A stretch of DNA of 64,000 nucleotides, from contig CAZHUS010000036.1 of the NCBI GenBank assembly GCA_964535555.1, positions 337 to 64,336 of the forward strand, in the 5' to 3' direction. Made by a program: the position numbers and the translations under genes. Shown piece after piece: positions 8,426-37,231 of the stretch (positions within the stretch are counted from its first letter, which is position 1; the number at the start of each line of letters is the position of its first letter). Below the pieces are notes generated by a model that saw nothing but the letters and a program-made list of their open reading frames with translations, ran no database searches and was not told the origin of the DNA. The stretch is from an uncultured Verrucomicrobiota bacterium (GTDB lineage: Bacteria > Verrucomicrobiota > Verrucomicrobiia > Limisphaerales > J093).

Positions 8426-10525
8426 ATGCAGCGAACCCAGAGGCGGAAAAGCGCGCCGGCACGTGTCGTCCCAGGACATCGCCGCGGTGTGCGGCTTTTG
8501 TTGGCCTGGCTGGCTGTCTGGTGCGTCGGGCCGCTGCGGAGTGACTCGACCCTCCCTTCGACCGCGCAGGCCAGGGAACCACGGTCTCTCCAGGTACAAT
8601 TCGCCTCGGGGGTGGGTCTCGGGTTGGCTTTGGGGTTCGTGCTTCAAATCGGATTGCGACGCTGGCGGAGGACCCGCGAAGCGTCGGGCGCCGATGTCCA
8701 AACCGCCTCGACCCTGCTTTCGGGCCAAGCCCCGGCACGGGACTGTCAGGATTCGATGGCTGCGCTCCACGAGGAGAGGCAACGCCTCCTCAGCGTGATC
8801 GATGCGGCGCAGGTCGGCACCTGGGAGTGGAACGTTCAAACCGGCGCCACGGTTTTCAACGCCCGCTGGGCGGGCATCATTGGGTACACCCTCGAGGAGC
8901 TTCAGCCCGTCTCCATCGAGACCTGGAATCGTCTGGTGCATCCCGACGACCTGCGGGCCAGCGCGCAAAACCTGAACCGGCATTTCACCCGTGAAACGGA
9001 GTACTACGAGACGGAAGCCCGCATGCGCCACAAGCATGGGGCGTGGGTATGGGTCCTCGATCGCGGACGCGTCGTTTCCTGGACCCTGGACGGCAAGCCG
9101 CTGCTGATGCGGGGAACCCACACCGACATTTCACGCCAGAAACGCTTGGAGGAAGCCCTGATAGACCGCGAACGCGAGTCGTCCACCCTGATGCAGAACC
9201 TCCCGGGAATGACTTACCGCTCGCGGGATCCGAGTCGTCCCTGGTGCCTTGATTTTGTGAGCGACGGAGCTGTCGCCCTGACCGGTTATCCCAAGGCGGC
9301 TTTGCTGCAAGGAGGCGGGACCACTTTCGCGGACCTCGTCCATGAACTGGACCGCGCCGCCGCCGAGAATGAAATGCAGTCGCGGCTCCGCCGGGGCGAA
9401 CCTTATGTCCTGCAGTATCGCTTGCGCACCTCGACGGGCCACGAGAAGTGGGTGTGGGAGCATGGCAGCGGGATTCCCGACAACCAAGGCAGGCTGCGGG
9501 GCATTGAAGCCCTGGTCCTGGACATCACCGCGCAGAGACAGGCGGAGGAGGAGTTGCGCCGAAGCGAGACCCGGTTTCGTGCCTTGATCGAACACGCGCC
9601 GGACGGGGTGGTCTTGGTATCGGCGCAGGGAGTCATGACCTTTGCCAGCCCGGCCGCACGGCGCATGTTCGGCTACAGCTCGGAGGACGTCCGGAGCATC
9701 AGTCCCAACGATTCAACGCACCCGGAGGATCTGCCCGGCGTTCTGCAGGCGCTGGAGTTGCTGATGCGTGAACCGCATCAGGTGCAGACGCTTTCCTATC
9801 GGTTCCGGCATCGGAACGGGCGGTGGATCTGGATCGAAAGCGTCTTCACCAACCTGCTGGGAGTGCCGGGGGTGGATGCCATCGTGATCAACTTCCGGGA
9901 CGTTGACGACCGCAAGCAGGCCGAGGCGGCGCTCCGCAGCAGCGAAGAGCGGTTTCGAACGCTGGTGGAGACCGCGCCGGAGGCCATCTTCATCCAGACC
10001 CAAGAATGTTTTGCGTACGCCAACACCGCCGCCCTGGCCCTGTTTCGGGCCGAAAGCGTCGAGGAACTCGTCGGCACGCCTGTTCTTGATCGCTTCCATC
10101 CGGATTACCGCGAACAAGTCCGGGAGCGGATCCGAAGGTTGAATGAAGAGGGACTGGCGGTGGAAGCGGTGGACGAGGTCTGCTTGACCCTCAAAGGCAC
10201 CTCCCGCGACGTCTCCGTCTCGGCCGTGCCTTTCTTCCACCAGGGGAGCAGGGGTGCCCTCGTCTTCGCGCGTGATATTTCCGAACGCAAACAGGCAGAG
10301 TACAAGCTGGCAAACCAGGTGGAAGAACTCCGCCGGTGGCATGCCGTCACGTTGGGACGTGAGCGCCGGGTGCTCGAGCTCAAGTCGGAGGTCAACGCGC
10401 TTCTGGCCGAACGCGAGCAACCGCCCCGCTACTCGAGCGCCGTGGGACCGACCCGGGACGATCTACCCACCGGCGGCGTAAGACGGGATCGGGACCGGCT
10501 CGCCCCGGCCGAGAATATGCCATGA
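8426..10525 (+). CDS. Membrane-anchored multi-PAS sensor (4 PAS/PAC domains) with no recognisable output domain
   Basis: GTWEWN..., VHPDDL, VHELDR, THPEDL and FHPDYR PAS cores; DIS/DIT PAC ends; C-terminal coil GRERRVLELKSEVNALL; no H-box or GGDEF. Start uncertain. Confidence 0.85.
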   Translation: MQRTQRRKSAPARVVPGHRRGVRLLLAWLAVWCVGPLRSDSTLPSTAQAREPRSLQVQFASGVGLGLALGFVLQIGLRRWRRTREASGADVQTASTLLSGQAPARDCQDSMAALHEERQRLLSVIDAAQVGTWEWNVQTGATVFNARWAGIIGYTLEELQPVSIETWNRLVHPDDLRASAQNLNRHFTRETEYYETEARMRHKHGAWVWVLDRGRVVSWTLDGKPLLMRGTHTDISRQKRLEEALIDRERESSTLMQNLPGMTYRSRDPSRPWCLDFVSDGAVALTGYPKAALLQGGGTTFADLVHELDRAAAENEMQSRLRRGEPYVLQYRLRTSTGHEKWVWEHGSGIPDNQGRLRGIEALVLDITAQRQAEEELRRSETRFRALIEHAPDGVVLVSAQGVMTFASPAARRMFGYSSEDVRSISPNDSTHPEDLPGVLQALELLMREPHQVQTLSYRFRHRNGRWIWIESVFTNLLGVPGVDAIVINFRDVDDRKQAEAALRSSEERFRTLVETAPEAIFIQTQECFAYANTAALALFRAESVEELVGTPVLDRFHPDYREQVRERIRRLNEEGLAVEAVDEVCLTLKGTSRDVSVSAVPFFHQGSRGALVFARDISERKQAEYKLANQVEELRRWHAVTLGRERRVLELKSEVNALLAEREQPPRYSSAVGPTRDDLPTGGVRRDRDRLAPAENMP

Positions 10526-23543: not shown

Positions 23544-23966
23544 TCAGGGGGCCACCGTATTCCCGGCGGCTTTCCAGGCATTGAACCCGCCATCCAGGTG
23601 CGTGACCTCCCGGAAACCCAGCGCTTCGAAGGTCTCCAGCGCCTTGGTGCTGCGTCGCCCCGACGCACAATGGACGAGATACGAGGGGCGCCGGTCCAGC
23701 TTGCTGAGGTTGGCCTGGAATCCCGGGTCGTTGAAGTCGACGAGCTGGGCACCGGGGATATGGCCCGCCGCGAATTCCTGGGGCGTCCGCACATCCAGCA
23801 CGACTACTTTCCGCTCGTTGATCAGCTTGGCCGCGCCCTGGGCATCCACGTGATGGATCGCGGTGGGTTCCGCCGCATGCGGTGCGGTGGCAGTGTCGCG
23901 GTGCTGTTGACAGCCGCTGATGGTAAGGCCAAGGGCGGTGAGCAGCCCTGCAAACATCCATTTCAC
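23544..23966 (-). CDS. Rhodanese-like lipoprotein
   Basis: Lipobox LTISGC; VLDVRTPQEFAAGHIPGA; VHCASGRRS; LDGGFNAW. Start GTG 23966 or ATG 23957. Confidence 0.88.
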   Translation of the reverse strand: MKWMFAGLLTALGLTISGCQQHRDTATAPHAAEPTAIHHVDAQGAAKLINERKVVVLDVRTPQEFAAGHIPGAQLVDFNDPGFQANLSKLDRRPSYLVHCASGRRSTKALETFEALGFREVTHLDGGFNAWKAAGNTVAP

Positions 23967-24091
23967 GCGGCGAGAGTGCCACAAGGCAGGCGGGGCGCAA
24001 CAACCGGGCGGGAACTGGTGACGGCCACCGCGCAATGGCCCACCACGATGGCACCGGCACGGGAGAGGCACCCTCATCGCGCGCGGACGGT

Positions 24092-24868
24092 TCAACCGTA
24101 CCGGCCTTCGACGTACTCCGCGGTCCGCGGATCACCAGGTTCGAGGAAGAGTTGCTGGGTCCGGCGGTGTTCGACAATCTCGCCGAGCAACATGAACACG
24201 CACTCGTCGCTCGCACGCCGCGCCTGGGCCATGTTGTGCGTGACGATGACGAGGGTGTAGCGCCCCTTCAGTTCGAACATCAGTTCCTCGATGGCCCGGG
24301 TGGCTTCGACATCCAGCGCGGAACAGGGTTCGTCCATGAGGATGACCTCGGGCTTGAGCGGCAACAACCGGGCGATGCAGAGCTTTTGTTGTTGCTCGAG
24401 CTGGAGCGCGGTGGCCCGGGCGTCCAGACGGTCTTTCAAGTCCTTCCAAAGGCCAACTTCCGTCAGCGCACTCTCGACGGCCGCATCGAGTTCCGCGCGG
24501 GTCAGGGCGCGGCGCGGATGGTGGATCCGCAGTCCGAAAACCACGTTTTCATAGATGGAAATGGGCAGGGGATTCGGTCGCTGAAACACCATGCCCACCG
24601 CCTTGCGCAGCTCGATCAACGAAACGTCGGGATCGTAAATGTTCTTTCCCAGCACCCGGATCTCCCCCGTGGTGGTAACGTAGCCGTAGCGCTCGTTGAC
24701 CCGGTTGAAGCAACGCAGGAGCGTGGTCTTGCCGCATCCCGAAGGGCCGATCAACGACGTGATCAGCCCGTGCCGAACCTGCACGTTCACGTTGCGGAGC
24801 GCCTGGAACTGGCCGTACCAGAGGTTCAGCTCGCGGGCGGTGATGGCATGGCCGTCGGGGGCGCTCAT
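24092..24868 (-). CDS. pstB: Phosphate ABC transporter ATP-binding subunit PstB (copy 2)
   Basis: GPSGCGKT, GMVFQRPNP, LMDEPCSALD and VTHN are intact; the signature motif is altered to LQLEQ. Confidence 0.92.
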   Translation of the reverse strand: MSAPDGHAITARELNLWYGQFQALRNVNVQVRHGLITSLIGPSGCGKTTLLRCFNRVNERYGYVTTTGEIRVLGKNIYDPDVSLIELRKAVGMVFQRPNPLPISIYENVVFGLRIHHPRRALTRAELDAAVESALTEVGLWKDLKDRLDARATALQLEQQQKLCIARLLPLKPEVILMDEPCSALDVEATRAIEELMFELKGRYTLVIVTHNMAQARRASDECVFMLLGEIVEHRRTQQLFLEPGDPRTAEYVEGRYG

Positions 24869-25631
24869 CCAAACAGTCCGTTCACATAGTCGAACGTGCG
24901 CCGGTCGCGCGGATGGTCGGAGAAGATGACCTCGGTGCGATCCACCTCGACCAATTCGCCGTTCCAGAGAAACAACGTCCGGTCCGCAAGGCGCCGGGCC
25001 TGTTGCGTGAGGTTGGTTACCAGGATGATCGTGATCTCCCGCCGGAGCTCCCGCAACACGTCCTCGATCCGCATCGTCGTCACCGGATCAATCGCGATCG
25101 AGAATTCGTCCAGGCAGAGAATCTCCGGTTGGTGCGAGAGCGCCCGGGCGATGGTCAATCGCTGTTGCTGACCTCCGGAGAGCTTGGTGCCAAGGCTGTG
25201 GAGGCGGTCCTTCACCTCGTCCCAGAGCGCCGCCTGCCGCAGACACTTCTCCACCAGGGCGTCCAGGTCCGGCCCGCGTTTCACCCCCGAACAGCGCGGG
25301 GCGAAGGCGACGTTCTCGTAGATCGAGAGGGGCAGGCCCACCGGCAGCGGCGCCACCATCCCGATCTTGCGTCGCAAGGCGAAGACGTCGCGGATGCGGG
25401 CGAGATCCTCGCCGTCCACCGTGACCGACCCGGAGAACTGGGCGTTGGGAATGAAGTCGATCGTCCGGTTCAGCACCCGCAGGAGCGAGGTCTTTCCTGA
25501 TTGTGCGGGCCCGATGATTCCGAGGATTTCCCGGGCGTGCACCGCGAAGGAGATGCCGTGGATCGCCTCGCGGTTTCCGTACGCGAGGCGGAGGTCCTGG
25601 ACTTCGATGCGTTTGACAGGGTCCGGGGCCA

Positions 25632-25632
<1 letters not shown>
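24865..25632 (-). CDS. pstB: Phosphate ABC transporter ATP-binding subunit PstB (copy 1)
   Basis: GPAQSGKT and LSGGQQQRL present; Q-loop altered (GMVAPLP) and H-switch altered (LVTN). ATG 25632 overlaps the pstA stop. Confidence 0.9.
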
Positions 25633-26555
<923 letters not shown>

Positions 26556-26558
26556 GGC

Positions 26559-27497
26559 TCACTTCCTGCGAATGCCCCGGATCACCAGGTCCGCCGTGAG
26601 GTTGACCACGAACGTGAGACTGAACAGCAGGACCCCGGTCAGGAAGAGCACGCGGTAGTGCTCCGAGCCCGCGGGTGCTTCCCCGAGTTCCGCGGCGATA
26701 TTGGCCGTGAGGGTACGCACCGAATCCAGGATGCCGCCCGGGATGTGCACCGCATGCCCCGTGGCCATCAACACCGCCATGGTCTCGCCCACGGCACGCC
26801 CGACCCCCAGCAGGACGGCGGCGAGCAATCCGTTCCGCGCCGCCGGGAGGAGGACGCGATAAACCAACTGCCAGCGCGTCGCGCCCAGGGCGATCCCCGC
26901 TTCACGAAACGAATCCGGCACCGCCTTGAGCGCGTCCTCACCAATGGAAACGATGATGGGCACGCTCATGAGGGCGAGGATGATGCCGCCGTTCAGGATG
27001 TTAACACCCACCGGAGCCCCCGTGACCGTCACAATCAACCGGCTCATGACCGTCAGACCAATGAAACCCCACACCACGCTGGGAATCGCCGCGAGCAGCT
27101 CGATCACAATCTTGAGCGCCTCCTTCAACCGCGGACCGCAGAACTCGGAGACGAAGATCGCCGCCCCCAGCCCGGAGGGGACCGCGATGGCCATCGCCAG
27201 AACCGTGACGCTCAGCGTGCCGACCGTGAGCGCGAGCGTGCCGTAACGCACATTGGCGACCGAGGTGGGATACCACTCGGTGCTGAATAGGAACTTCCCC
27301 AGGTCGAACCGCTCGCTGCCAAAAAGAACCGGCGCCGCCTCCCGGAAGACGAAAAAGAAGATGGCGAGCACGAAGAGAATCGCGCTGACGCCGCTGATGC
27401 GGATGACCCACTCGATCGCCTGTTCGCCCAAGACCGCCCATCGCGGCCGACTGGGACGGACCGACGGGGCGGTGGCTGGGACTGCTGGGACGGACAT
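26559..27497 (-). CDS. pstC: Phosphate ABC transporter permease PstC
   Basis: ELLAAIPSVVWG, ALGATRWQ, GRAVGETMAV, TLTANIA. Confidence 0.95.
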   Translation of the reverse strand: MSVPAVPATAPSVRPSRPRWAVLGEQAIEWVIRISGVSAILFVLAIFFFVFREAAPVLFGSERFDLGKFLFSTEWYPTSVANVRYGTLALTVGTLSVTVLAMAIAVPSGLGAAIFVSEFCGPRLKEALKIVIELLAAIPSVVWGFIGLTVMSRLIVTVTGAPVGVNILNGGIILALMSVPIIVSIGEDALKAVPDSFREAGIALGATRWQLVYRVLLPAARNGLLAAVLLGVGRAVGETMAVLMATGHAVHIPGGILDSVRTLTANIAAELGEAPAGSEHYRVLFLTGVLLFSLTFVVNLTADLVIRGIRRK

Positions 27498-27560: not shown

Positions 27561-28451
27561 TCAAGGCGTTCCGCCCGGGCCGGTCACCGGAACGTAACCG
27601 CTCTGCACCACGACCTTCTGCCCGGCCGGCGACAGGATCCAATCCACGTAGCGCTTCAGTTCGCCCTCGGGCTCGCCCAGGGCGCAAACGTGCAGCGAGC
27701 GGGCAATCGGGTAGGACTTGTCCAGGGTGTTGGCCACGCTGGGAGGGATCGCGGGCTGTCCCGCCTTGGCCGAGATCCGCAGCATTTTCACCTGGGCCGA
27801 GGCGTACCCCATGCCGCTGTATCCAATCGCGCAGGGCGTGCTTCCGACCAGTTCCACCACTTCCTTGGAGCCATTCATGTCCCGGGACCCGAGCTTGAAG
27901 TCGTGGTTGGCAAGCACGTGCTCCCGGAAGAACTCGTACGTCCCGGAGCTCGACTGACGACTGACCCGGATGATCTCGTCGTTGTCGCATCCGGGAACCT
28001 TGACGCCCAGTTGGGACCACCGCGTCGTGGCTCCGCCCTCGGAATAAATGGCCGCAAGCTGTTCGAACGAGAGTTCTTCAATCGGGTTGTCCTTGTGGAC
28101 GTAAACCGCCAGCGCGTCGTAACCGACCGTAATCTCCTTGGGCGCCTTGCCGGTATTGCGGCGAGCCTGCTCGATTTCGTCCGATTTGAGGTCACGGCTC
28201 GCGTTCGCCAGGTCGACGGTTCCACGGAGCAACGCGGCAATCCCCACGCCGGAGCCGCCCCCCGAGACCTCGATCTCAACCTCGGGAACCACCGCATGGT
28301 AGGCCTCCGCCCAGGCTTGGGCGAGATTCACCATCGTGTCCGATCCCTTGTTCTGGATCACGCGAGCGGAACTGCCGCCGCCCCCGCCGCCGCAGCCCGC
28401 AAGGACCAAAGCGGCACATCCGGTCGTGATGAAGCGCTGGAACGCAGTCAT
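27561..28451 (-). CDS. pstS: Phosphate-binding lipoprotein PstS
   Basis: Lipobox LAGC; KGSDT, SGGGSGVG, SRQSSSGT, YPIARSL. Start MTAFQ at 28451. Confidence 0.95.
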   Translation of the reverse strand: MTAFQRFITTGCAALVLAGCGGGGGGSSARVIQNKGSDTMVNLAQAWAEAYHAVVPEVEIEVSGGGSGVGIAALLRGTVDLANASRDLKSDEIEQARRNTGKAPKEITVGYDALAVYVHKDNPIEELSFEQLAAIYSEGGATTRWSQLGVKVPGCDNDEIIRVSRQSSSGTYEFFREHVLANHDFKLGSRDMNGSKEVVELVGSTPCAIGYSGMGYASAQVKMLRISAKAGQPAIPPSVANTLDKSYPIARSLHVCALGEPEGELKRYVDWILSPAGQKVVVQSGYVPVTGPGGTP

Positions 28452-28458
28452 AAATCGT

Positions 28459-29589
28459 TCAGACTTTCGAGGCCACGGCGATCGGGGGCTGGATCTCGCC
28501 CTCATCCAGCACCGCCGCAACCAAGGCGTGCACATGCTCTTCGAGGAAGCGGTACGCCGTTTGGTGAATCTCCTGTACCGTTTCGGGAGAACCCTCCGCC
28601 AGGGCCGGATCCGGCACGGACCAATCAAGCAGAATGCGCTTGTGCGCCTGCCGGGGCAGCACCTTCCGCACCTCCGGAGCCAGGGCGACGAGCACGTGGT
28701 ACCGATCCAGTTCCTGCACCTCGGTGAGGGCTCTGGACGCCCGTCGCGAAAGATCGAAGCCCTTGGCCTTCATGAACTCGATCGTGGCCGGGGCGATCGG
28801 CCGCGGATCCAGCCCCGCGCTCGCAAACCCAAACTTCCCCCGGGCCAGGGATGCCCCAAGCGCTTCCGCCATGGGACCCGCGCCGGCATCATGCCGGTCG
28901 ACGAGCAGCACGCGAACAGTCCCGGTGCCGAGGTGCTTGGCGTACTCCCCCGTGCACAGGTAAAGCGTCTCCAGACAGATGTCGCGGGCCTGATCCGAGA
29001 CCCGCTCGAGCCGCCGGGTGATCGTCAGGCACGGGTCCAGGGCCTCGAACGGCAGCCGGTTTTCCCGGTACCACCGCATCAGATCGGTCCGGAGGCGCGT
29101 CTTGAGACCATCCACCGTGTCTTCGGTCTCGATGGTGGTTCGCGCCAAGGCGGCGTCCTCGGTCAGAAACGCCCGCATGGCATCCGCCAGCATGCCCACG
29201 GCCAGATCGGTGATCTGAAGAAATCGGTCGGCCGGGATTTCGAAGGGGATGTCACTCAGCTTGGCAGCCTGGTGGGCGATGCTCTGGGCGTAATCCCCCA
29301 CCCGCTCCAACTCGGCGTTGACCTTGATGCTGCTGTAGGCGAACCGGAGGTGACCTGCCGCGGGTTGCTGCCGGACGAGAAACTCGAGACAGAGCCGGTC
29401 GATTTCCTTTTCCAGGCCGTCGATCGCCTGGTCGCGGATGATGACGGCGTAGGCGCGCTGGTGATTGCGCTCAAGCAGGGCCTGCACCGCCTCCCGCACC
29501 GCCCGTTGACAACGCGTGGCCATGTCCGCAAGGCGGGCGCGGATCTGATCGACTTCCCGCTGGAGGGACTGGTCAAGGAGGTGCGCCAT
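28459..29589 (-). CDS. phoU: PhoU fused to a C-terminal ArsC/LMW-PTP-like domain
   Basis: Two PhoU repeats (ELERVGDYA, RLERVSDQARDI); C-terminal 'VLLV..........MAEAL...FASAG...M...G.DL...W.VPDP' ArsC/LMWP fold. Confidence 0.9.
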   Translation of the reverse strand: MAHLLDQSLQREVDQIRARLADMATRCQRAVREAVQALLERNHQRAYAVIIRDQAIDGLEKEIDRLCLEFLVRQQPAAGHLRFAYSSIKVNAELERVGDYAQSIAHQAAKLSDIPFEIPADRFLQITDLAVGMLADAMRAFLTEDAALARTTIETEDTVDGLKTRLRTDLMRWYRENRLPFEALDPCLTITRRLERVSDQARDICLETLYLCTGEYAKHLGTGTVRVLLVDRHDAGAGPMAEALGASLARGKFGFASAGLDPRPIAPATIEFMKAKGFDLSRRASRALTEVQELDRYHVLVALAPEVRKVLPRQAHKRILLDWSVPDPALAEGSPETVQEIHQTAYRFLEEHVHALVAAVLDEGEIQPPIAVASKV

Positions 29590-29637
29590 AGAACCGCCCC
29601 GAGTTTCAGGGAAAGCACCCGGCATGGCGATGATTTT

Positions 29638-29805: not shown

Positions 29806-30127
29806 CCGGCGCCCCGCCGGCCATCACGGCTGCTGCATCACCCGGCCCCTTCCGGCCCGGAGACAGGAACGGGACTTCTCGAACCCGCCCATGAATCTCG
29901 CTGCTTTCAGGCTGGCCATGCTTCTGGCCTTGCTCCATGCTCACGAAGACGTCCACGGCGGCTTGAACAGACTGGCCGCGCCGGGGTTACCTCGGCCGCG
30001 CGGCAACCCGCCATGGGGTCGCCGCCCCGCTGCCACGTGAGAAACGTGGAACGCGCGGGGTCGCGTCCGATGAATCCGAATCGGTGCCGGGACGTCCTTT
30101 TCGCCAGCTATGTGCCGTTCGCCGCGA

Positions 30128-32257
30128 ATGGGTTGGTGGCGCCAGCTAGGGACGGTGCTCGTCCTGCTGGTGGCGCTGACTTCGTGTCAACGCTACGAGG
30201 AAGGGCGGGAACCGGAGCGCGCCAAACCGGCAAAAAGCACCCGCAAGGCGGAGCGAAAACCGGCTGCGGCCACGGCCGATTCGACGGTGCCAACGACGGA
30301 TTCCGCCCCCCCTCCGGCTTCGTCCACGACGGCCGCGCCTCCGCCCGTCGAACCGGAGCCGAAAGTCTCCTATAGCGCGTTTCACGACGACGAGATCAAG
30401 GAAATCCTCAAGCTCGCAGACGCCGAGCGCTGGGAGGAAGCCGAGACCCGCGCCAAGGCCTTGGAAGCCAAGGACCCCCAGGATGCCGCGGCCCGGCGCC
30501 TCCGCGGCTGGGTCCAAAAGGAACGCGAAGCCGCCCGCGAGAAAGCCCTCGAGGATCGCATCCGCGAAATCGACGCGCGTCATTCGGTCTTCAACCCGAC
30601 CATCAAGGACGTTCTCACCGAGAGCAAGGATCGGGGCTTGCCCCCGCGCAAGGACGTCCGGGACACGGTCGAGCAGATCGAATCGGCCCCGTACATCCCC
30701 TCGAGCTTTGGGAGAACCAACCGCCTCGACGGCGTCCTGTTCGACATGGAATCCGAACAGGGCCGGATGGCGCAAATCCTGGAAAAGCCGATCTCGATCC
30801 AGTTGGACAACACGACGCTCAGCGACATCATCTTCAACATCGGGCAGACCGAGGGAATCAACTTCGTCGCGGACAAGTCCCTGCCGGCGTTCCAGCAGAA
30901 GCTGAGCATCAACATGGAGCGGGTGAAGCTCTGGGAACTCCTGCGCTACATCTCCCGGAATCTCGACCTGCAGTTCCAGGTGGGCGATGACCTGATCTGG
31001 ATCGTCGACGGCAAGGACCCCAAGAAGGCGCTCGAAGAGACGCGGTTCTTCCGGCTCCGGAAAGGCTTCATCCTCCCCGCGAGGTTCGGTCCGGACAAGG
31101 TGGTGATGAACAAGGCCATGACCCCCCAGGGCCAGGTGCAGGCCATCACCGAAAGCCAGGAACTGAACGTCTTCGTCAACGACCTGACGCCGCAGATGGT
31201 GGCGATGGAGCGGGCCATCACGAATTTCTTCACGGGCTCGAAGTACATGCTCGATTACGAACGCAACCTCATCGTGGCCAGCGGCACCCGCGAGCAATTG
31301 CAGGTCCTCGAACGGATCGTGAAGGAATTCGACAAGCCTCTGCAGCAAGTCTTCATCGAGGCCAGGTTCATCACCCTGACTGAAGCCGCCTTCCTCCGCC
31401 TCGGCGTGGCATGGGAGACGGGTCGGAGCACCTCGGACACCGAGGCCGATTCCTCGACCGCCGCCGCCCTGGGGCTGTTGAATCCCGCCTTGGGCATCCA
31501 GGAGGTGTTCACGAACATCCTCAACCGGCCCACGCTCACCGCCACGCTCTCCCTGTTGGATCAGAGTGGCGAGAGCCAGCTCTTGAGCGCCCCAAGGTTG
31601 GTCGTGATCAACAACCTCCCGGCCACGATCAGCGACGGGAAGATGCAGTACTACTACGAGGAGTACCAGGTGAAGCAGCAGATCCTCGAACGCCGGTCTT
31701 CTTCCGCCCTCGTTCCCGCCGGCAAGCCCACCAAGATCCAGTCCGGCGCGAGCCTCGAAGTGCTCGCGAGCATCGGCGGCGATGGCCAGACCATCTTCCT
31801 CGCGCTTCACCCCAAGGTGAACTCCGCGGTGCGGCTGGTGAATTTCCTCACGGTGTCCGACACCGACGACGCCGGAAACGTGGTCAGCACCACCGACATC
31901 AAACTGCCCGAATACCGCACCCAGGACCTGTCCACGCGCGTCGCCGTGAGGTCGGGCCAGACCGTCGTGATGGGCGGGGTGCTCGAGCGGGAACAGACCA
32001 CCTTCGTCGAGTCGGTGCCGATCCTGGGCAACCTGCCGATCATCGGCGCCGCCTTCCGCCGTCGCACCGAGATCGACCGCCCGCGATACCTGCTGGTGTT
32101 CGTGACGGCGACGCTGTTGTCTGAGACCGGCGAGTTTCTCGTTTATGACGAACCCGTGACGCGCAGGCCGGACACGGTGGAACCCGCCGGCCCGGGACCG
32201 GCGCCGGTCAGCCCGTCCGCGACCCTGCCCTCGGCGGCGCCCACTCCAGCCCAGTAG
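30128..32257 (+). CDS. Secretin (GspD/PilQ family) with lipoprotein signal
   Basis: Lipobox LTSC; STN/N-domain; QVFIEARF, APRLVVINN, GQTVVMGG, VPILGNLPIIGAAFR, LLVFVTATL. Confidence 0.92.
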   Translation: MGWWRQLGTVLVLLVALTSCQRYEEGREPERAKPAKSTRKAERKPAAATADSTVPTTDSAPPPASSTTAAPPPVEPEPKVSYSAFHDDEIKEILKLADAERWEEAETRAKALEAKDPQDAAARRLRGWVQKEREAAREKALEDRIREIDARHSVFNPTIKDVLTESKDRGLPPRKDVRDTVEQIESAPYIPSSFGRTNRLDGVLFDMESEQGRMAQILEKPISIQLDNTTLSDIIFNIGQTEGINFVADKSLPAFQQKLSINMERVKLWELLRYISRNLDLQFQVGDDLIWIVDGKDPKKALEETRFFRLRKGFILPARFGPDKVVMNKAMTPQGQVQAITESQELNVFVNDLTPQMVAMERAITNFFTGSKYMLDYERNLIVASGTREQLQVLERIVKEFDKPLQQVFIEARFITLTEAAFLRLGVAWETGRSTSDTEADSSTAAALGLLNPALGIQEVFTNILNRPTLTATLSLLDQSGESQLLSAPRLVVINNLPATISDGKMQYYYEEYQVKQQILERRSSSALVPAGKPTKIQSGASLEVLASIGGDGQTIFLALHPKVNSAVRLVNFLTVSDTDDAGNVVSTTDIKLPEYRTQDLSTRVAVRSGQTVVMGGVLEREQTTFVESVPILGNLPIIGAAFRRRTEIDRPRYLLVFVTATLLSETGEFLVYDEPVTRRPDTVEPAGPGPAPVSPSATLPSAAPTPAQ

Positions 32258-32268
32258 CTCCGCGTCCA

Positions 32269-34086
32269 ATGTCCATTCCCGCTGCTCCCTGGTTGCCGCG
32301 AGTCTTCCCCGTGCTGGGACGGCGGCTGGTGGTGATCGATCCGGGACGGGAGTTCATCAAAGTGCTGGTGGTGGATCACGGTCTGTTCCAGCCGCGGGTG
32401 GTTCATTTCGAGACGATCGTCCCGTCCGAGGCCCCGGGCGCGGTGGTCGAGGACATGGAAGCCGAGCTCGACCGGCTGCTGGCGCAGACCGGCGCTCACG
32501 AGCGTGTCCTGGTCCTGCCGCAGTACCGGGCGATTGCCCAAGTGGTTGAGGCGCCCTCGGACACCCCGGCTGAGATCCGCGCGGCCTTGATCCGCGAGGC
32601 CCGGCGCCTGAGCGGCTTGGACGAAGGCGGAATGGCGTTCGACGCCCAACAGCTCCGCCCCTTCGGCCGCTACCAGCGTCCCTCGTGGCTGACCCTATGC
32701 AAACGCGAGGAACTCGACTCCTTGCTGGGACGGTTTGCCACCACCCGGAGCGAGGCCGGGGCACCGGTCGAGGATATCGTCCTGGCCGAGGTGACGACCA
32801 GCGGGCAGGCGCTGTTCGCCGCTGCGCACGCGTTGGGTCCCGAAGCCAGGAGCGCCGTGCTGGTGGATCTCCGCGCCCACAACAGCGTCATCGCCATCGT
32901 TATCGACGGGCAGGGCGTTCAGACCACGACCATCCCGACCGGTTCCATCCAGTTCCACACGCCGGGCGCCTCCGGCCCGTCAGATCCCGGCCGGAGGACG
33001 GATGATCCGGCCTTCAAGGTGTCCCACACCAATGTGGAGGCCGCCGCCGCCGCCTTGCGCAAGTGGGGGGGTGAGATCCGGCTGGCCGTGAGTGAATGGC
33101 TCGAGGACAATCCCGAGTGCCGCCTGGCCTTGAGCGATCTGCCGGTGTTTCTGTGCGGCGTGGGGGCGACCCAGCCAGGCCTGATCGAGTTCCTCAACAC
33201 CCTGGGGCCGCTGCGGTTTGTGGCTTGGGAACACCGCGTCACCAGCGGTCGGCCCTGGCCCATGGCGGACTACCTGGTGCCCTACGGAGCCGCGTTGCTC
33301 GCCTTCCAGCGCGCGCCCCACGGGGCCTCGTTCCTGCCCGCCGAGGATCGATCCGTCAAACACCGGCGCCGCACCCTCGCGCGCCTGCAAAGCTCCAACG
33401 TGCTCCTGATGGTGCTGCTCGTTGCCTTGCTGGGCTTCGCGATCCACCAGAAGCGCGACCTCGTTCAGCGGAAACGGGAGATCACCGCCCGCGCCCAGGC
33501 GTCCTTGCAGAGCGCACTGGCCATCGACCAGGCGTACCGCGAGCTGAACCAGCACTACGCCGAGGTCCTGCCCATCCTCGAGCGTCAGCGTTCCACGATG
33601 GAGGCGCTCCAGACCCTCGCCGCGGTCCGCTCTGCCCGCACCAACGACGATTTCTGGTACGTGCTCTTCGCGGATGCGACCAGTTACGCGACGGGACGCA
33701 CCGGCGTCGCCGTCGAAAGTCCGCCCGGAGATCCTCCGCCCGCCGCCAATCCGACCTCGGCCTCCGCGTCACGCGAATTCGTCGTCGAGGTCTGCACTCC
33801 CCACGATGGCGAACGCCAGCGGCGGATCCTCAGTGACCTGGTATCAACCCTGAAACGCGAGGTCATCTTCCGCCGCGTCGACGCCCTCCCCCCCGAACGC
33901 AAGCGGGACTGGCTCGCCACGAACGTCTACGTCTCGAACCACGTGTTCGCCATCGCCATGGAGGTGGCCGGCAATGAGCTGCCGCCAGTCTCCTCCCTCG
34001 CCCCGGCAGCACCGGAAACCACGCGTGACAACCGGCGCCCCGGCACGGCGCGCAACCCCGCGCCGGCCGAGCCACCCCGTCGCTGA
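32269..34086 (+). CDS. PilM/PilN (GspL-like) fusion, assembly platform protein
   Basis: N-terminal VIDPG actin-like start, LVDL, FLCGVGA...PGL; then a TM helix and coiled periplasmic PilN-like region. Confidence 0.7.
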   Translation: MSIPAAPWLPRVFPVLGRRLVVIDPGREFIKVLVVDHGLFQPRVVHFETIVPSEAPGAVVEDMEAELDRLLAQTGAHERVLVLPQYRAIAQVVEAPSDTPAEIRAALIREARRLSGLDEGGMAFDAQQLRPFGRYQRPSWLTLCKREELDSLLGRFATTRSEAGAPVEDIVLAEVTTSGQALFAAAHALGPEARSAVLVDLRAHNSVIAIVIDGQGVQTTTIPTGSIQFHTPGASGPSDPGRRTDDPAFKVSHTNVEAAAAALRKWGGEIRLAVSEWLEDNPECRLALSDLPVFLCGVGATQPGLIEFLNTLGPLRFVAWEHRVTSGRPWPMADYLVPYGAALLAFQRAPHGASFLPAEDRSVKHRRRTLARLQSSNVLLMVLLVALLGFAIHQKRDLVQRKREITARAQASLQSALAIDQAYRELNQHYAEVLPILERQRSTMEALQTLAAVRSARTNDDFWYVLFADATSYATGRTGVAVESPPGDPPPAANPTSASASREFVVEVCTPHDGERQRRILSDLVSTLKREVIFRRVDALPPERKRDWLATNVYVSNHVFAIAMEVAGNELPPVSSLAPAAPETTRDNRRPGTARNPAPAEPPRR

Positions 34087-34091
34087 AACGC

Positions 34092-34943
34092 ATGCCTTCC
34101 GCCGCTTCATCCCGGACCTCGCGCCTGCGCTTCTCCGAAGCCACCGCCTTGCTCACCCTGCTGCTCGCGCTGGTGTTCGTGCTTGGCTTCGAGCCTGTCG
34201 CCCGGCGGGCCAGCCTGATGGACCAACCCCTGCGTCATGCGTGGGAGGCCTTCGCCCGCACCAATCAGTCGAGCCTGGCCACCGCCGGCGTCCCCGAGGA
34301 CAGACTTCCCGCACGGCTTGAGGCCATCCAGGCCACCGCCACCGAACTCGACGACCTCCGCCGCCTCGCGTTCCAGCGCATCGAATTGACCCCGGAGGTG
34401 GCGGACCGGATCCAGGCCCCCTTCCAGCTGATCGATTTTGACAACGAACGGCTGCGCATCGCGGACGAACTTGCCGCGCTCGGCAAGGCCAAGAAGGTCC
34501 CGATCCAGCCCGCGGCCCTCGGCGGGCTGCCCCGCTATCCGTCGGAATCGGCCCCGGCGTTCCTCTGGCCGCGGCTCCACATCGCGCAACAGGCGCTGCT
34601 CACCGCGGCGCACTGCGAAGTTGCCGGCATCCTCGAACTGAGCCAGCTGCCGCCCGTCACGCACCGCAGCCCCATGGACGGCCGGCGCCTTTATGAAGAA
34701 CTGCGGATGCGACTGGAAGTGGCCGGAGCCGCTGAACCGCTGGGACGCTTTCTCACCAGCCTGCCCCTCCGGGGAGAGGAACTCAAAGCCACCGGCCTGG
34801 CGGAGATCCTCACCAACAAACCCGCGCTCTTCGTCAGTCAACTCCTGATGCGCAAAGCCGCACCCGACCGGCCCAACGACGCGCGCCTTGAACTGGTGAT
34901 CAGCGGCTTCGTGCCTTCGGCCGGTCCGCGGCGAGCGCTTTGA
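34092..34943 (+). CDS. PilO/GspM-like platform protein
   Basis: Single N-terminal TM, coiled coil and ferredoxin-like C-terminus (MRLEVAG...LELVISGF); operon position. Confidence 0.6.
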   Translation: MPSAASSRTSRLRFSEATALLTLLLALVFVLGFEPVARRASLMDQPLRHAWEAFARTNQSSLATAGVPEDRLPARLEAIQATATELDDLRRLAFQRIELTPEVADRIQAPFQLIDFDNERLRIADELAALGKAKKVPIQPAALGGLPRYPSESAPAFLWPRLHIAQQALLTAAHCEVAGILELSQLPPVTHRSPMDGRRLYEELRMRLEVAGAAEPLGRFLTSLPLRGEELKATGLAEILTNKPALFVSQLLMRKAAPDRPNDARLELVISGFVPSAGPRRAL

Positions 34944-34958
34944 AGCAGGTTGCCTCCG

Positions 34959-35462
34959 ATGACGCCCAGCCTCGAACGAAGCCTCTGGATCTCGGCCGGC
35001 GTCCTCTCCGGCCTGCTGGTCCTGTTGGTCCTCACGGTCTACCGCGTCGGCGGCAACGTCCCCGCCCTCCGTCCGCTCGGCGGGACGAATCGCCTCGGCC
35101 CGGCCGCCCTCCCTGTCGACGCCGCCAACGAGTGGTTTCAACCCGCTCAACTCACCCGCTTGATCGGCCAGACGAACTTCCCCAATCCGTTCTATACCGC
35201 TCACTTCGCGCCGCCGCCGCCGCCCAGCACCAAGCCGGTCGAGCTCACTTACCTGGGCTTCATGGACAGCGACAACCGGCCCCGCCGCGCCCTCGTCCAG
35301 GTGAACAACGCGACCCAACTCCTGACCAACGGCAGCCGTCTGGTCGCCGACCACGTCGTCAAGGACATCGCCCGTCGAACCCTGACCCTCACCAACGGCG
35401 CCAGCATCACCAACGTGCTCGAGTTCCGCATCAAGAAGGTCATCGAAGTCCCCGCCCAGTGA
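34959..35462 (+). CDS. PilP/GspC-like bitopic protein
   Basis: One TM, NPFY...PPPP linker, 'LTYLGFM...RALVQV' beta domain; operon position. Confidence 0.55.
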   Translation: MTPSLERSLWISAGVLSGLLVLLVLTVYRVGGNVPALRPLGGTNRLGPAALPVDAANEWFQPAQLTRLIGQTNFPNPFYTAHFAPPPPPSTKPVELTYLGFMDSDNRPRRALVQVNNATQLLTNGSRLVADHVVKDIARRTLTLTNGASITNVLEFRIKKVIEVPAQ

Positions 35463-37231
35463 ATCCCGTGAACCCCCCTGAAGAACCCCGGCGCGAGGTG
35501 GGCGACGTCCTCCTCGCCGCCGGCAAACTGGACCCGGAACAGCTCGAACTCGTCCGCCGGCGTCAGAAACGACTCCGGACTCCCCAACACGAAGCCCTGG
35601 TTGAACTGGGCTTCGCCTCGGAGACCGACACCTACTCCGCCCTCGCCAGCCTCCACGGCCTCGAGTTCGTTGACCTGTCCAACTTCAACTTCCCCCCGGG
35701 ACTGCCGGACGAAAAGCTGTTCCCTCTGGCCGTCGTTCATAACCACCGCGTCCTGCCCCTCACGATCGACGAAACCTCGATCACCGCGGCCTTTGTCGAA
35801 CCGCCCCGCCAGACCGAACTGGGCAACCTCCGCCTGCTGGTGAACCGCCAGATCAAGCCGGTCCTCACGACCCCAAGCTGCTACCGCGACGTCGTTCGCC
35901 GGCACCTCGGCCTGGGTGCCGAAACCATCCAACGCATGGGCGAGGACCGGGAAGGCCAGGAAGGATCCCCCGACATCGTCTTCCAGGTCGGAGCGGGCGA
36001 GGATGATGCCGCGGTCAGTGCCGGTGTCACGCGCTACGTTGATCTGCTCCTCGCCGATGCCCTTCGCCTGGAAGCCACGGACATCCACATCGAACCCTAC
36101 GCCTCGCGCATCAAGCTCCGGTACCGCGTGGATGGCGTCATGCAACCCATCACCGCCCCCGAGAGCCTACGCCAGGTCTACGGGGCGCTCGTCTCCCGGT
36201 TGAAAATCATGGCCGGGCTCAACATTGCCGAGAAGCGCCTTCCGCAGGACGGGCGTATCTCCATGAAGACCGACGCCGCGGCCTATGACCTGCGCGTGTC
36301 CATCGTCCCCAGCAAACACGGGGAGGCCGTCTGCCTTCGCATTCTCGGCCGGCACAGCCTCCTGCTTGACCTGCGCGAACTGGGCCTCGAGGCGGAGCAG
36401 GAACACATGCTCCGTTCTCTGACGCGCCTGCCCCAGGGCCTGGTCCTGCTCACCGGCCCCACCGGCAGTGGCAAGACCACCACGCTCTATGCGGCCCTAG
36501 CCAACGCCAACGACGAAGGCCGCAAAATCATCACCATCGAAGATCCGGTCGAGTACCAGCTCGAGGGTATCGTTCAGATCCAGACCAAGGACGACATCGG
36601 GCTGGATTTCGCCGCCGGGCTGCGTTCCATCCTGCGCCACGACCCGGATGTGATGCTCATCGGTGAAATCCGCGATCGCGAGACCGCCGACATCGCCGTC
36701 CGGGCCGCGCAAACCGGCCACCTGGTCTTCTCGACCCTGCATGCCAACGACAGCGTCAACGTGATCACCCGCCTTTTGGACATGGGGATTGACCCCTTTC
36801 CACTGGGCTCGGCCCTCGTCTCCAGCATCGCCCAGCGGCTGGCCCAGCGGATCTGCCGTCATTGCGGCGGACCCGACGACGAGATCGCACCCGAGGTGCG
36901 GGCGGAGATTGCCGCGGCGCTCCGGCTCGACCCGGCCCAGGTGCGCGCCTCCCGGGGGCGCGGCTGCGTGGAATGCAACGGGAAGGGCACGCGCGGTCGG
37001 GTTGCCATTTACGAGTTCTTCCTGATGAGCGAGGAAATCGCCGATCTCTTCGGTCCCAATCTGACCACCGGGCACCTCCGCAACGCGGCCCGGCAGCAGG
37101 GCTGGCGTTCGTTGCGAGACCAGGCCTGGAAGAAGGTCCAGCAAGGCCAGATCCCCATCGCCGAAATCCAGCGGCTTACCTTCCGGATCCAGCAGCCGAA
37201 CGTCCAGCCCCTCCTCGCGCTGGTGCCGTGA
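35459..37231 (+). CDS. GspE/PilB secretion/pilus assembly ATPase
   Basis: MshEN-like N-terminus; ATDIHIEP, RYRVDG, LPQDGR, GPTGSGKT, EDPVEY, LRHDPD, GHLVFSTLH, CxxC...CxxC. GTG start overlaps the upstream stop. Confidence 0.95.
   Translation: MNPVNPPEEPRREVGDVLLAAGKLDPEQLELVRRRQKRLRTPQHEALVELGFASETDTYSALASLHGLEFVDLSNFNFPPGLPDEKLFPLAVVHNHRVLPLTIDETSITAAFVEPPRQTELGNLRLLVNRQIKPVLTTPSCYRDVVRRHLGLGAETIQRMGEDREGQEGSPDIVFQVGAGEDDAAVSAGVTRYVDLLLADALRLEATDIHIEPYASRIKLRYRVDGVMQPITAPESLRQVYGALVSRLKIMAGLNIAEKRLPQDGRISMKTDAAAYDLRVSIVPSKHGEAVCLRILGRHSLLLDLRELGLEAEQEHMLRSLTRLPQGLVLLTGPTGSGKTTTLYAALANANDEGRKIITIEDPVEYQLEGIVQIQTKDDIGLDFAAGLRSILRHDPDVMLIGEIRDRETADIAVRAAQTGHLVFSTLHANDSVNVITRLLDMGIDPFPLGSALVSSIAQRLAQRICRHCGGPDDEIAPEVRAEIAAALRLDPAQVRASRGRGCVECNGKGTRGRVAIYEFFLMSEEIADLFGPNLTTGHLRNAARQQGWRSLRDQAWKKVQQGQIPIAEIQRLTFRIQQPNVQPLLALVP

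Follow-up and report, generated by a model that had tools for sequence, protein, structure and literature searches.

Adjacent PstB paralogs with complementary motif losses likely form a phosphate importer with a single catalytic ATP site

Introduction

In the structurally characterized PstSCAB phosphate importer of Escherichia coli (9k3x, 9k3y, 9k3s; PMC12976172), one PstB subunit resides under PstA and a second under PstC. These are two identical copies of the same protein, and they create two consensus ATP sites. Herein we describe a pst operon from an uncultured Verrucomicrobiota bacterium (GCA_964535555.1), wherein two adjacent genes encode distinct PstB proteins that we call PstB-1 and PstB-2. 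The operon is located in a 64,000-nucleotide stretch of contig CAZHUS010000036.1 (positions 337 to 64,336, forward strand), hereafter called the window. The PstB fold is alike in the two systems, and one ATPase subunit is again expected under each membrane subunit. However, the ATPase subunits encoded in the window are paralogs that are only ~38% identical, and together they would form one consensus site. The system also differs from that of E. coli in that its PhoU protein is encoded upstream and carries an extra domain.

Adjacent pstB paralogs within one pst operon are likewise found in Firmicutes, as exemplified by the tandem PstB1/PstB2 (PstBA/PstBB) proteins of Enterococcus faecalis and Bacillus subtilis (PMC12096839, PMC11466899). 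Genetic analyses of E. faecalis revealed that PstB1 and PstB2 have non-equivalent roles, and the authors state that no earlier study of tandem pstB paralogs had been published (PMC12096839). Unlike the pair described here, both copies are canonical in the Firmicute systems (PMC12096839), and thus PstB-1 and PstB-2 are not members of this type. Canonical tandem pairs were also encountered at four of the loci in our collection (L028, L036, L044, and L058), where the two proteins share ~60% mutual identity and fall outside both the PstB-1 and PstB-2 clades.

Non-identical ATPase domains, in which altered catalytic residues of one domain and an altered signature of the other map to one composite site and a single consensus site is left, are well represented by TM287/288, TmrAB, BmrCD, TAP1/2, CFTR, and MRP1, and degenerate sites are described as frequent in exporters (PMC7756269, PMC3971661). 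A first-pass annotation of the window had likened the PstB pair to the asymmetry of the CFTR and TM287/288 type. This comparison holds for its logic, but not for its details. Those proteins have an exporter fold with fused membrane domains, whereas Pst, a type I importer, has ATPase subunits that are free. They have lost the Walker B Glu, whereas this residue is retained in 100% of PstB-1 proteins. Moreover, ATP is bound tightly at their degenerate site, whereas the PstB-2 residue equivalent to CFTR G551 is an invariant Glu, which argues against canonical occlusion of ATP (PMC4178940).

Importers with one ATP site that is predicted to be non-functional also have precedent in RbsA and NupO (PMC11466899). 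In these proteins, however, the ATPase domains are fused and the degenerate site lacks the Walker A Lys or Walker B residues, whereas PstB-1 and PstB-2 are separate subunits with an intact Walker A and an intact Walker B. RbsA and NupO are also sugar or nucleoside importers, and therefore differ from the Pst pair in both family and substrate. What is seen at the sequence level for a partnership of two domains in the system described here is a pair of distinct genes that are always adjacent, translationally coupled, and co-diverging. The suggestion that asymmetry of this kind had gone undescribed for Pst agrees with our literature search, which found no description of an asymmetric PstB in the incomplete library searched.

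Complementary Motif Losses in PstB-1 and PstB-2

Both genes are located on the minus strand, and the two proteins depart from the motif consensus at different places. The gene for PstB-1 occupies positions 24865..25638, with an alternative ATG at 25632. Its product carries Pro98 in place of the Q-loop Gln (GMVAPLPVG, 25336-25362) and Asn210 in place of the switch His (ILVTNL, 25009-25026). The D-loop, which reads FSIAID within the segment ILCLDEFSIAID (25087-25122), is likewise unusual. PstB-1 keeps the A-loop Tyr, the Lys of Walker A (GPAQSGKT, 25489-25512), and the Asp-Glu of Walker B, and its signature LSGGQQQRL (25156-25182) is the sole intact LSGGQ in the system. PstB-2 (24092..24868) has a canonical Walker A (GPSGCGKT), Q-loop (GMVFQRPNP), Walker B and D-loop (VILMDEPCSALD), and switch (VIVTHN). 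Its signature, LQLEQQQKL (24380-24406), has Leu-Glu where Gly-Gly is expected. All the motifs quoted in the first-pass annotation, which had reported the same losses for each protein, are present in the minus-strand translations.

Neither subunit carries the full consensus set of ATP-binding cassette (ABC) motifs, given that PstB-1 lacks the Gln and His and PstB-2 lacks the signature Gly-Gly. The PstB equivalog model TIGR00972 is nonetheless the best match for both proteins, yet the scores of 270.9 bits for PstB-1 and 320.0 bits for PstB-2 are under its curated cutoff of 343.2 bits.

A Conserved and Strictly Paired Arrangement

To establish how widespread this arrangement is, species-representative genomes were scanned with PstB-1. 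This yielded at least 22 loci whose proteins are 57-77% identical to the query, whereas the next matches share at most 49% identity and are canonical PstB proteins. The 22 listed loci carry the labels Verrucomicrobiota (Limisphaera), Acidobacteriota (Holophagales, Thermoanaerobaculia), Planctomycetota, Poribacteria, Binatia, delta-proteobacteria/Polyangiaceae (Myxococcota), Gammaproteobacteria (Chromatiaceae), and Accumulibacter, and so represent roughly six to eight groups at the phylum level. At every one of them (22/22, with L011 cut by a contig end), a PstB-2-type gene directly follows the PstB-1-type gene. Moreover, in the window and at these loci the two pstB genes are located directly 3′ of pstS-pstC-pstA in an operon that also includes phoU, which is the genetic context expected for PstB.

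The substitutions are as constant as the gene order. All PstB-1-type proteins conform to GxVxPLPVG, LSGGQQQRL, LDEFSIA[IV]D, and VTNL, and all PstB-2-type proteins conform to GMVFQRPNP, L[QSLTA]LE[QEKA]QQKL, DEP[CA]S[AS]LD, and VTHN. In an alignment of genome sequences, the substitutions are present in 23/23 PstB-1-type and 22/22 PstB-2-type proteins, and none is found in the ~68 canonical PstB sequences included in the same alignment. When the 120 database proteins closest to PstB-1 were compared, 119 likewise showed a pattern of Pro, Gly-Gly, FSIAID, and Asn, and the single exception seems to be a spurious match to the motif pattern.

A reciprocal scan of metagenomes gave the same result. 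Among 80 contigs found via PstB-2, 77 have a PstB-1-type gene upstream, and the other three have fewer than 200 bases upstream. Thus, all testable contigs (77/77) are paired, and the motif pattern is identical wherever a motif falls inside the contig. Co-conservation of the substitutions in homolog pairs had been put forward as a check on the initial observation, and it is borne out both by the 22 listed genomes, for which PstB-1 was the seed, and by the 77 contigs, for which PstB-2 was the seed. The motif pattern is far beyond chance.

The cassettes at loci L001-L004 share 68-77% protein identity with that of the window, even though they carry Verrucomicrobia, Acidobacteria, Holophagales, and delta-proteobacteria labels. 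This suggests either lateral transfer of the whole operon or mislabeled metagenome bins.

Evolution, Selection, and Fold

In neighbor-joining trees, PstB-1 and PstB-2 are each monophyletic in 50/50 bootstraps and are subtended by long stems. Their ~38% identity to each other compares with 44% (PstB-1) and 48% (PstB-2) identity to canonical PstB proteins, and the two clades are sisters in only 11/50 bootstraps. Pairwise distances for the two subunits over the 22 listed loci are correlated (r=0.887), which indicates that PstB-1 and PstB-2 travel and diverge as a pair.

Both genes are under purifying selection. Ratios of nonsynonymous to synonymous substitution rates (dN/dS) are 0.08-0.35 for the two genes when closer relatives are compared, although these values are rough because synonymous divergence is near saturation. 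We also defined a reference set of 87 alignment positions, each of which is at least 90% conserved in canonical PstB. Fixed alternatives are present in PstB-1 at 11 of these positions, including two in Walker A, three in the Q-loop, two in the switch, and one in the D-loop, with the remaining three located just past the signature helix, at the residue after Walker B, and a few residues beyond the D-loop. PstB-2 has fixed alternatives at only six positions, of which one is in the Q-loop region, three are in the signature, one is just after the signature, and one is further on. Hence, 76 of the 87 positions in PstB-1 and 81 in PstB-2 have no fixed change, and nearly all the changes that have occurred fall inside or beside catalytic motifs. 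Conservation across the PstB-1 type is 100% for the A-loop Tyr, Walker A Lys, and Walker B Asp-Glu, and the C-terminal residues that are conserved in canonical PstB are retained in the pair.

An AlphaFold2 model of PstB-1 (mean predicted local distance difference test score of 82) has E. coli PstB (9k3x_C) as its best solved match, with template modeling (TM) scores of 0.86/0.90. The pair combines a predicted PstB fold and the conserved non-catalytic PstB positions with altered catalytic motifs. These motif changes represent functional specialization rather than erosion.

A Proposed Heterodimer with One Catalytic Site

Each ATP site of an ABC protein is composed of the Walker A, Walker B, Q-loop, and switch motifs of one domain and the signature motif of the partner domain. 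When this head-to-tail geometry is applied to the window proteins, the missing Gln and His of PstB-1 and the altered signature of PstB-2 map to the same composite site, and the other composite site is fully consensus save for the PstB-1 D-loop. We infer from this mapping that PstB-1 and PstB-2 would assemble under the PstC-PstA membrane pair as an obligate heterodimer. Site 1, formed by the P-loop, Gln, Glu, and His of PstB-2 and the LSGGQ of PstB-1, would be complete and is predicted to hydrolyze ATP. Site 2, formed by the P-loop of PstB-1 and the LxLE of PstB-2, would lack the Gln, the His, and both signature glycines, and therefore should not turn over ATP at a useful rate. One ATP would then be spent per transport cycle.

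This model likewise offers an explanation for why the two genes never occur apart. A PstB-1 homodimer would lack Gln and His at either site, and a PstB-2 homodimer would lack an intact signature, such that only the heterodimer can have a complete site. The mapping and the ABC geometry support the earlier proposal that a heterodimer would combine one canonical site (PstB-2 Walker motifs with PstB-1 LSGGQ) with one doubly degenerate site. We consider it likely that the two subunits function only as a heterodimer, which has a single catalytic site and consumes one ATP per cycle.

Several observations weigh against this proposal. Loss of the Walker B Glu has been called a hallmark of degenerate sites (PMC7544095), and PstB-1 retains this catalytic residue with 100% conservation. 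ABCC1 remained able to transport when Asn or Gln occupied the switch-His position of its active site (PMC7756269), and so Asn210 alone need not abolish hydrolysis. The non-canonical D-loop of PstB-1 reaches into the site that is presumed to be active. In addition, PstB1 of E. faecalis can be replaced by excess PstB2 (PMC12096839), which indicates that tandem PstB proteins are not always obligate heterodimers, albeit in a system where both proteins are canonical. Finally, a search for RNA sequencing runs covering pstB1 gave no match, and hence provided no evidence of expression.

Some of these same points might favor an importer in which both sites hydrolyze ATP, with site 2 serving as a slow, non-canonical ATPase that employs Asn210 and the retained Glu, such that two ATP molecules are used. 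The ABCC1 precedent is consistent with this possibility, as is the complete conservation in PstB-1 of the Asp-Glu in Walker B, the Lys in Walker A, and the A-loop Tyr. However, three independent catalytic elements (Gln, His, and the signature glycines) are gone from one site and their loss is fixed across phyla, and the acidic residue at the position equivalent to CFTR G551 is of the kind that blocks closure over ATP (PMC4178940). We therefore regard hydrolysis at both sites as unlikely. It is quite unlikely that the motor is instead a PstB-2 homodimer, with PstB-1 acting as an accessory or regulatory competitor, a brake, or a PhoU adaptor in the manner of E. faecalis PstB1. The PstB-2 chain does carry every catalytic residue itself, and the non-equivalence of the E. 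faecalis proteins and the ability of excess PstB2 to replace PstB1 could be read in this way. A PstB-2 homodimer, however, would present LxLE at both sites and so have no complete site, the sole and invariant LSGGQ is on PstB-1, and the two genes are translationally coupled and are not met apart.

The unusual ATPase pair might also be explained by import of another oxyanion, such as arsenate, phosphite, or thiophosphate. The PhoU partner carries a domain resembling arsenate reductase or a phosphatase, and a rhodanese lipoprotein gene follows pstB2 in the window. These associations make for a very improbable case, given that PstS scores above its curated family cutoff and PhoU above its equivalog cutoff, the phosphatase-like domain lacks the catalytic Cys, and rhodanese is present at 0/22 of the related listed loci. 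The prospect that the pair is merely a duplicated pstB in decay, with motif losses that are neutral damage, had been recognized at the outset as a threat to any functional reading. Scores under the curated PstB cutoff for both subunits speak in favor of such decay. Conservation already refutes it, because dN/dS values are low, the substitutions are identical across phyla, the few fixed changes are clustered at catalytic motifs with 76 to 81 of 87 conserved positions spared, and the predicted fold is intact. We assign almost no chance to this explanation.

The State of Site 2

If PstB-1 and PstB-2 form the one-site heterodimer that we favor, then the second site would probably not be empty. It retains the adenine-stacking Tyr, the Lys and Thr of Walker A, and the Asp-Glu of Walker B, and on account of this P-loop, Tyr, and Asp-Glu it probably still binds nucleotide. 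Facing these residues would be the invariant Glu that PstB-2 carries at the second signature glycine, which corresponds to G551 of CFTR. At that position in CFTR, Asp or Glu, and not Ser or Lys, repels the γ-phosphate of ATP and prevents dimer closure (PMC4178940). The invariant Glu thus argues against canonical closure over the ATP γ-phosphate. Site 2 is more likely to be a rebuilt non-catalytic or regulatory pocket than a hinge that tightly occludes ATP in the manner of CFTR site 1 or TM287/288.

We speculate that this pocket might serve as a sensor, in which Asn replacing His, Pro replacing Gln, and the PstB-2 carboxylate at the γ-phosphate location create a site that prefers ADP or is inhibited by ATP. 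Such a site could report nucleotide or phosphate status, with the PhoU fusion protein reading or setting its state. This more elaborate proposal is doubtful. The simpler notion that the dead site has a sensing role together with PhoU may be correct, and the support for it is associative, coming from the co-occurrence of the genes. If site 2 does act as a sensor, then these operons would represent a separate class of phosphate importers that regulate themselves and have spread laterally, and whose hosts are wastewater, soil, and aquatic bacteria, including one with a genome labeled Accumulibacter.

A PhoU Protein Fused to a Phosphatase-Like Domain

The phoU gene (28459..29625, minus strand) encodes a protein that matches TIGR02135 (149.5 bits, cutoff 130.25) and PF01895, with a C-terminal extension that resembles low-molecular-weight phosphatase or arsenate reductase (PF01451 LMWPc, 24.8 bits). 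A P-loop-like stretch in this extension, VRVLLVDRHDAGAGPMAEAL (28858-28917), has Asp at the position of the catalytic Cys (VLLVDRHDAGAGP). In an alignment of the fusion proteins from the window and 13 related loci, VLFVD replaces the Cys-bearing loop in all 14 sequences. The presence of Asp in place of the catalytic Cys in every copy indicates that the extension is a pseudo-enzyme.

A PhoU protein with an extension of 139-149 amino acids is encoded in the window and at 13 of the 22 listed loci with an asymmetric pair, where its gene is located either upstream of pstS or in the pstS-pstC interval. Such a protein is encoded at none of the 46 canonical loci with a PhoU, and the extensions there are at most 33 residues long. 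This co-occurrence supports the view that the asymmetric pair belongs to a distinct Pst cassette. A literature search found no description of a PhoU-phosphatase fusion, again in an incomplete library.

A Second Lineage and Additional PstB Variants

Complementary losses are not confined to the relatives of the window proteins. Three more distant PstB relatives (P0131, P0161, and P0172) have lost the Gln (GMVFAVPQPLP), have kept LSGGQ, and have the switch LVTNN, from which the His is missing. At locus L084 (1802-3203), a gene of this kind precedes a partner whose motifs read GMVFQRPNP, LSAEQQQRL, and VTHN and are thus canonical apart from the LSAEQ signature. The same pair is present at L083 (3-921), where it is followed by a plain PhoU gene, and at L081 (671-1644) the downstream gene begins as a PstB with a canonical Walker A. 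Judging by these motifs, the complementary split recurs in a second lineage, and there too the second signature glycine is replaced by an acidic residue. When trees of the two lineages were examined, the PstB-1-like proteins grouped together in 48/50 bootstraps and the PstB-2-like partners in 0/50.

Other departures from the consensus were also noted. At L005 (Poribacteria), a third degenerate PstB-like gene (8483-9283) is located just 3′ of the asymmetric pair. Its product carries VGMVFRKPIP, QLSIGQQQLL, DEPCGELD, and IFATNK, and the gene is preceded by a partial PstA-like open reading frame and followed by a plain PhoU gene. The PstB-like proteins P0160, P0175, and P0241 have the signature LSIGQ or LSVGQ, with Q-loop surroundings of GLLAQKP, GLLLQKP, and GFISQRP, and the switch His is present. 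The diversity of non-consensus PstB proteins may extend beyond the two lineages that we examined.

Significance for Importer Mechanism and Annotation

To our knowledge, the need of type I importers for both ATP sites has been argued solely from engineered mutants, such as HisP complexes with one inactive subunit. The pair described herein would instead represent a natural and widespread type I importer whose ATPase subunits are free and whose one-site design has apparently become fixed. It therefore offers a direct system with which to address how many ATP molecules are needed per binding-protein-dependent import event, to which membrane subunit the active site is coupled, and what role is played by a non-catalytic site in an importer.

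The pair also has a bearing on annotation. The source databases use generic names for these proteins ("phosphate ABC transporter ATP-binding protein" or "ATP-binding cassette domain-containing protein"), both scores are under the curated PstB cutoff, and no dedicated NCBIfam model matched PstB-1 or PstB-2 in a profile search.

DNA of the window was recovered almost complete in a sludge metagenome run, which points to a sludge metagenome as its source, and the nearest protein relatives are labeled Verrucomicrobia. Because the cassette is found in activated-sludge organisms and at one locus in an Accumulibacter genome, it is relevant to the control of phosphate uptake during biological phosphorus removal.

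Organization of the Operon and Its Surroundings

The order of genes on the minus strand is phoU (fusion)-pstS-pstC-pstA-pstB1-pstB2. PstS, a phosphate-binding lipoprotein (27561..28451; TIGR02136, 214.5 bits, cutoff 206.6; PF12849), likely starts at the Met codon at 28451 and has the lipoprotein signal LVLAGC. The permease genes are pstC (26559..27497; PF00528 BPD_transp_1) and pstA (25632..26555; PF00528), the latter also assigned from its conserved order. PstC of the window shares 54-82% identity with the PstC proteins of all related loci, and the gene order is unchanged. The pstA stop codon runs into the start region of PstB-1, and the PstB-1 stop codon and the PstB-2 ATG share an ATGA overlap. 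These overlaps create an arrangement that is typical of translationally coupled subunits. A scan for sigma-70 promoters gave no match, and terminator-like sites are present at background level, and so the operon boundaries rest solely on gene spacing.

The rhodanese lipoprotein gene directly 3′ of pstB2 (23544-24095, minus strand) likely starts at 23957 or 24077, and its longest open reading frame overlaps the pstB2 stop codon. Its product has the signal LTISGC and the active-site loop HCASGRRS. We rejected this gene as a component of the system because it is absent from all 22 related listed loci. Upstream of the operon, and divergent from it, are genes for a secretin (PF00263) and an MshEN-domain-containing type II/IV secretion ATPase (30110-37231, plus strand), separated by two open reading frames that have no Pfam match. 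Downstream of the operon are a gene for methylenetetrahydrofolate reductase and, as judged by eye from translations, a likely cluster of NADH dehydrogenase genes.

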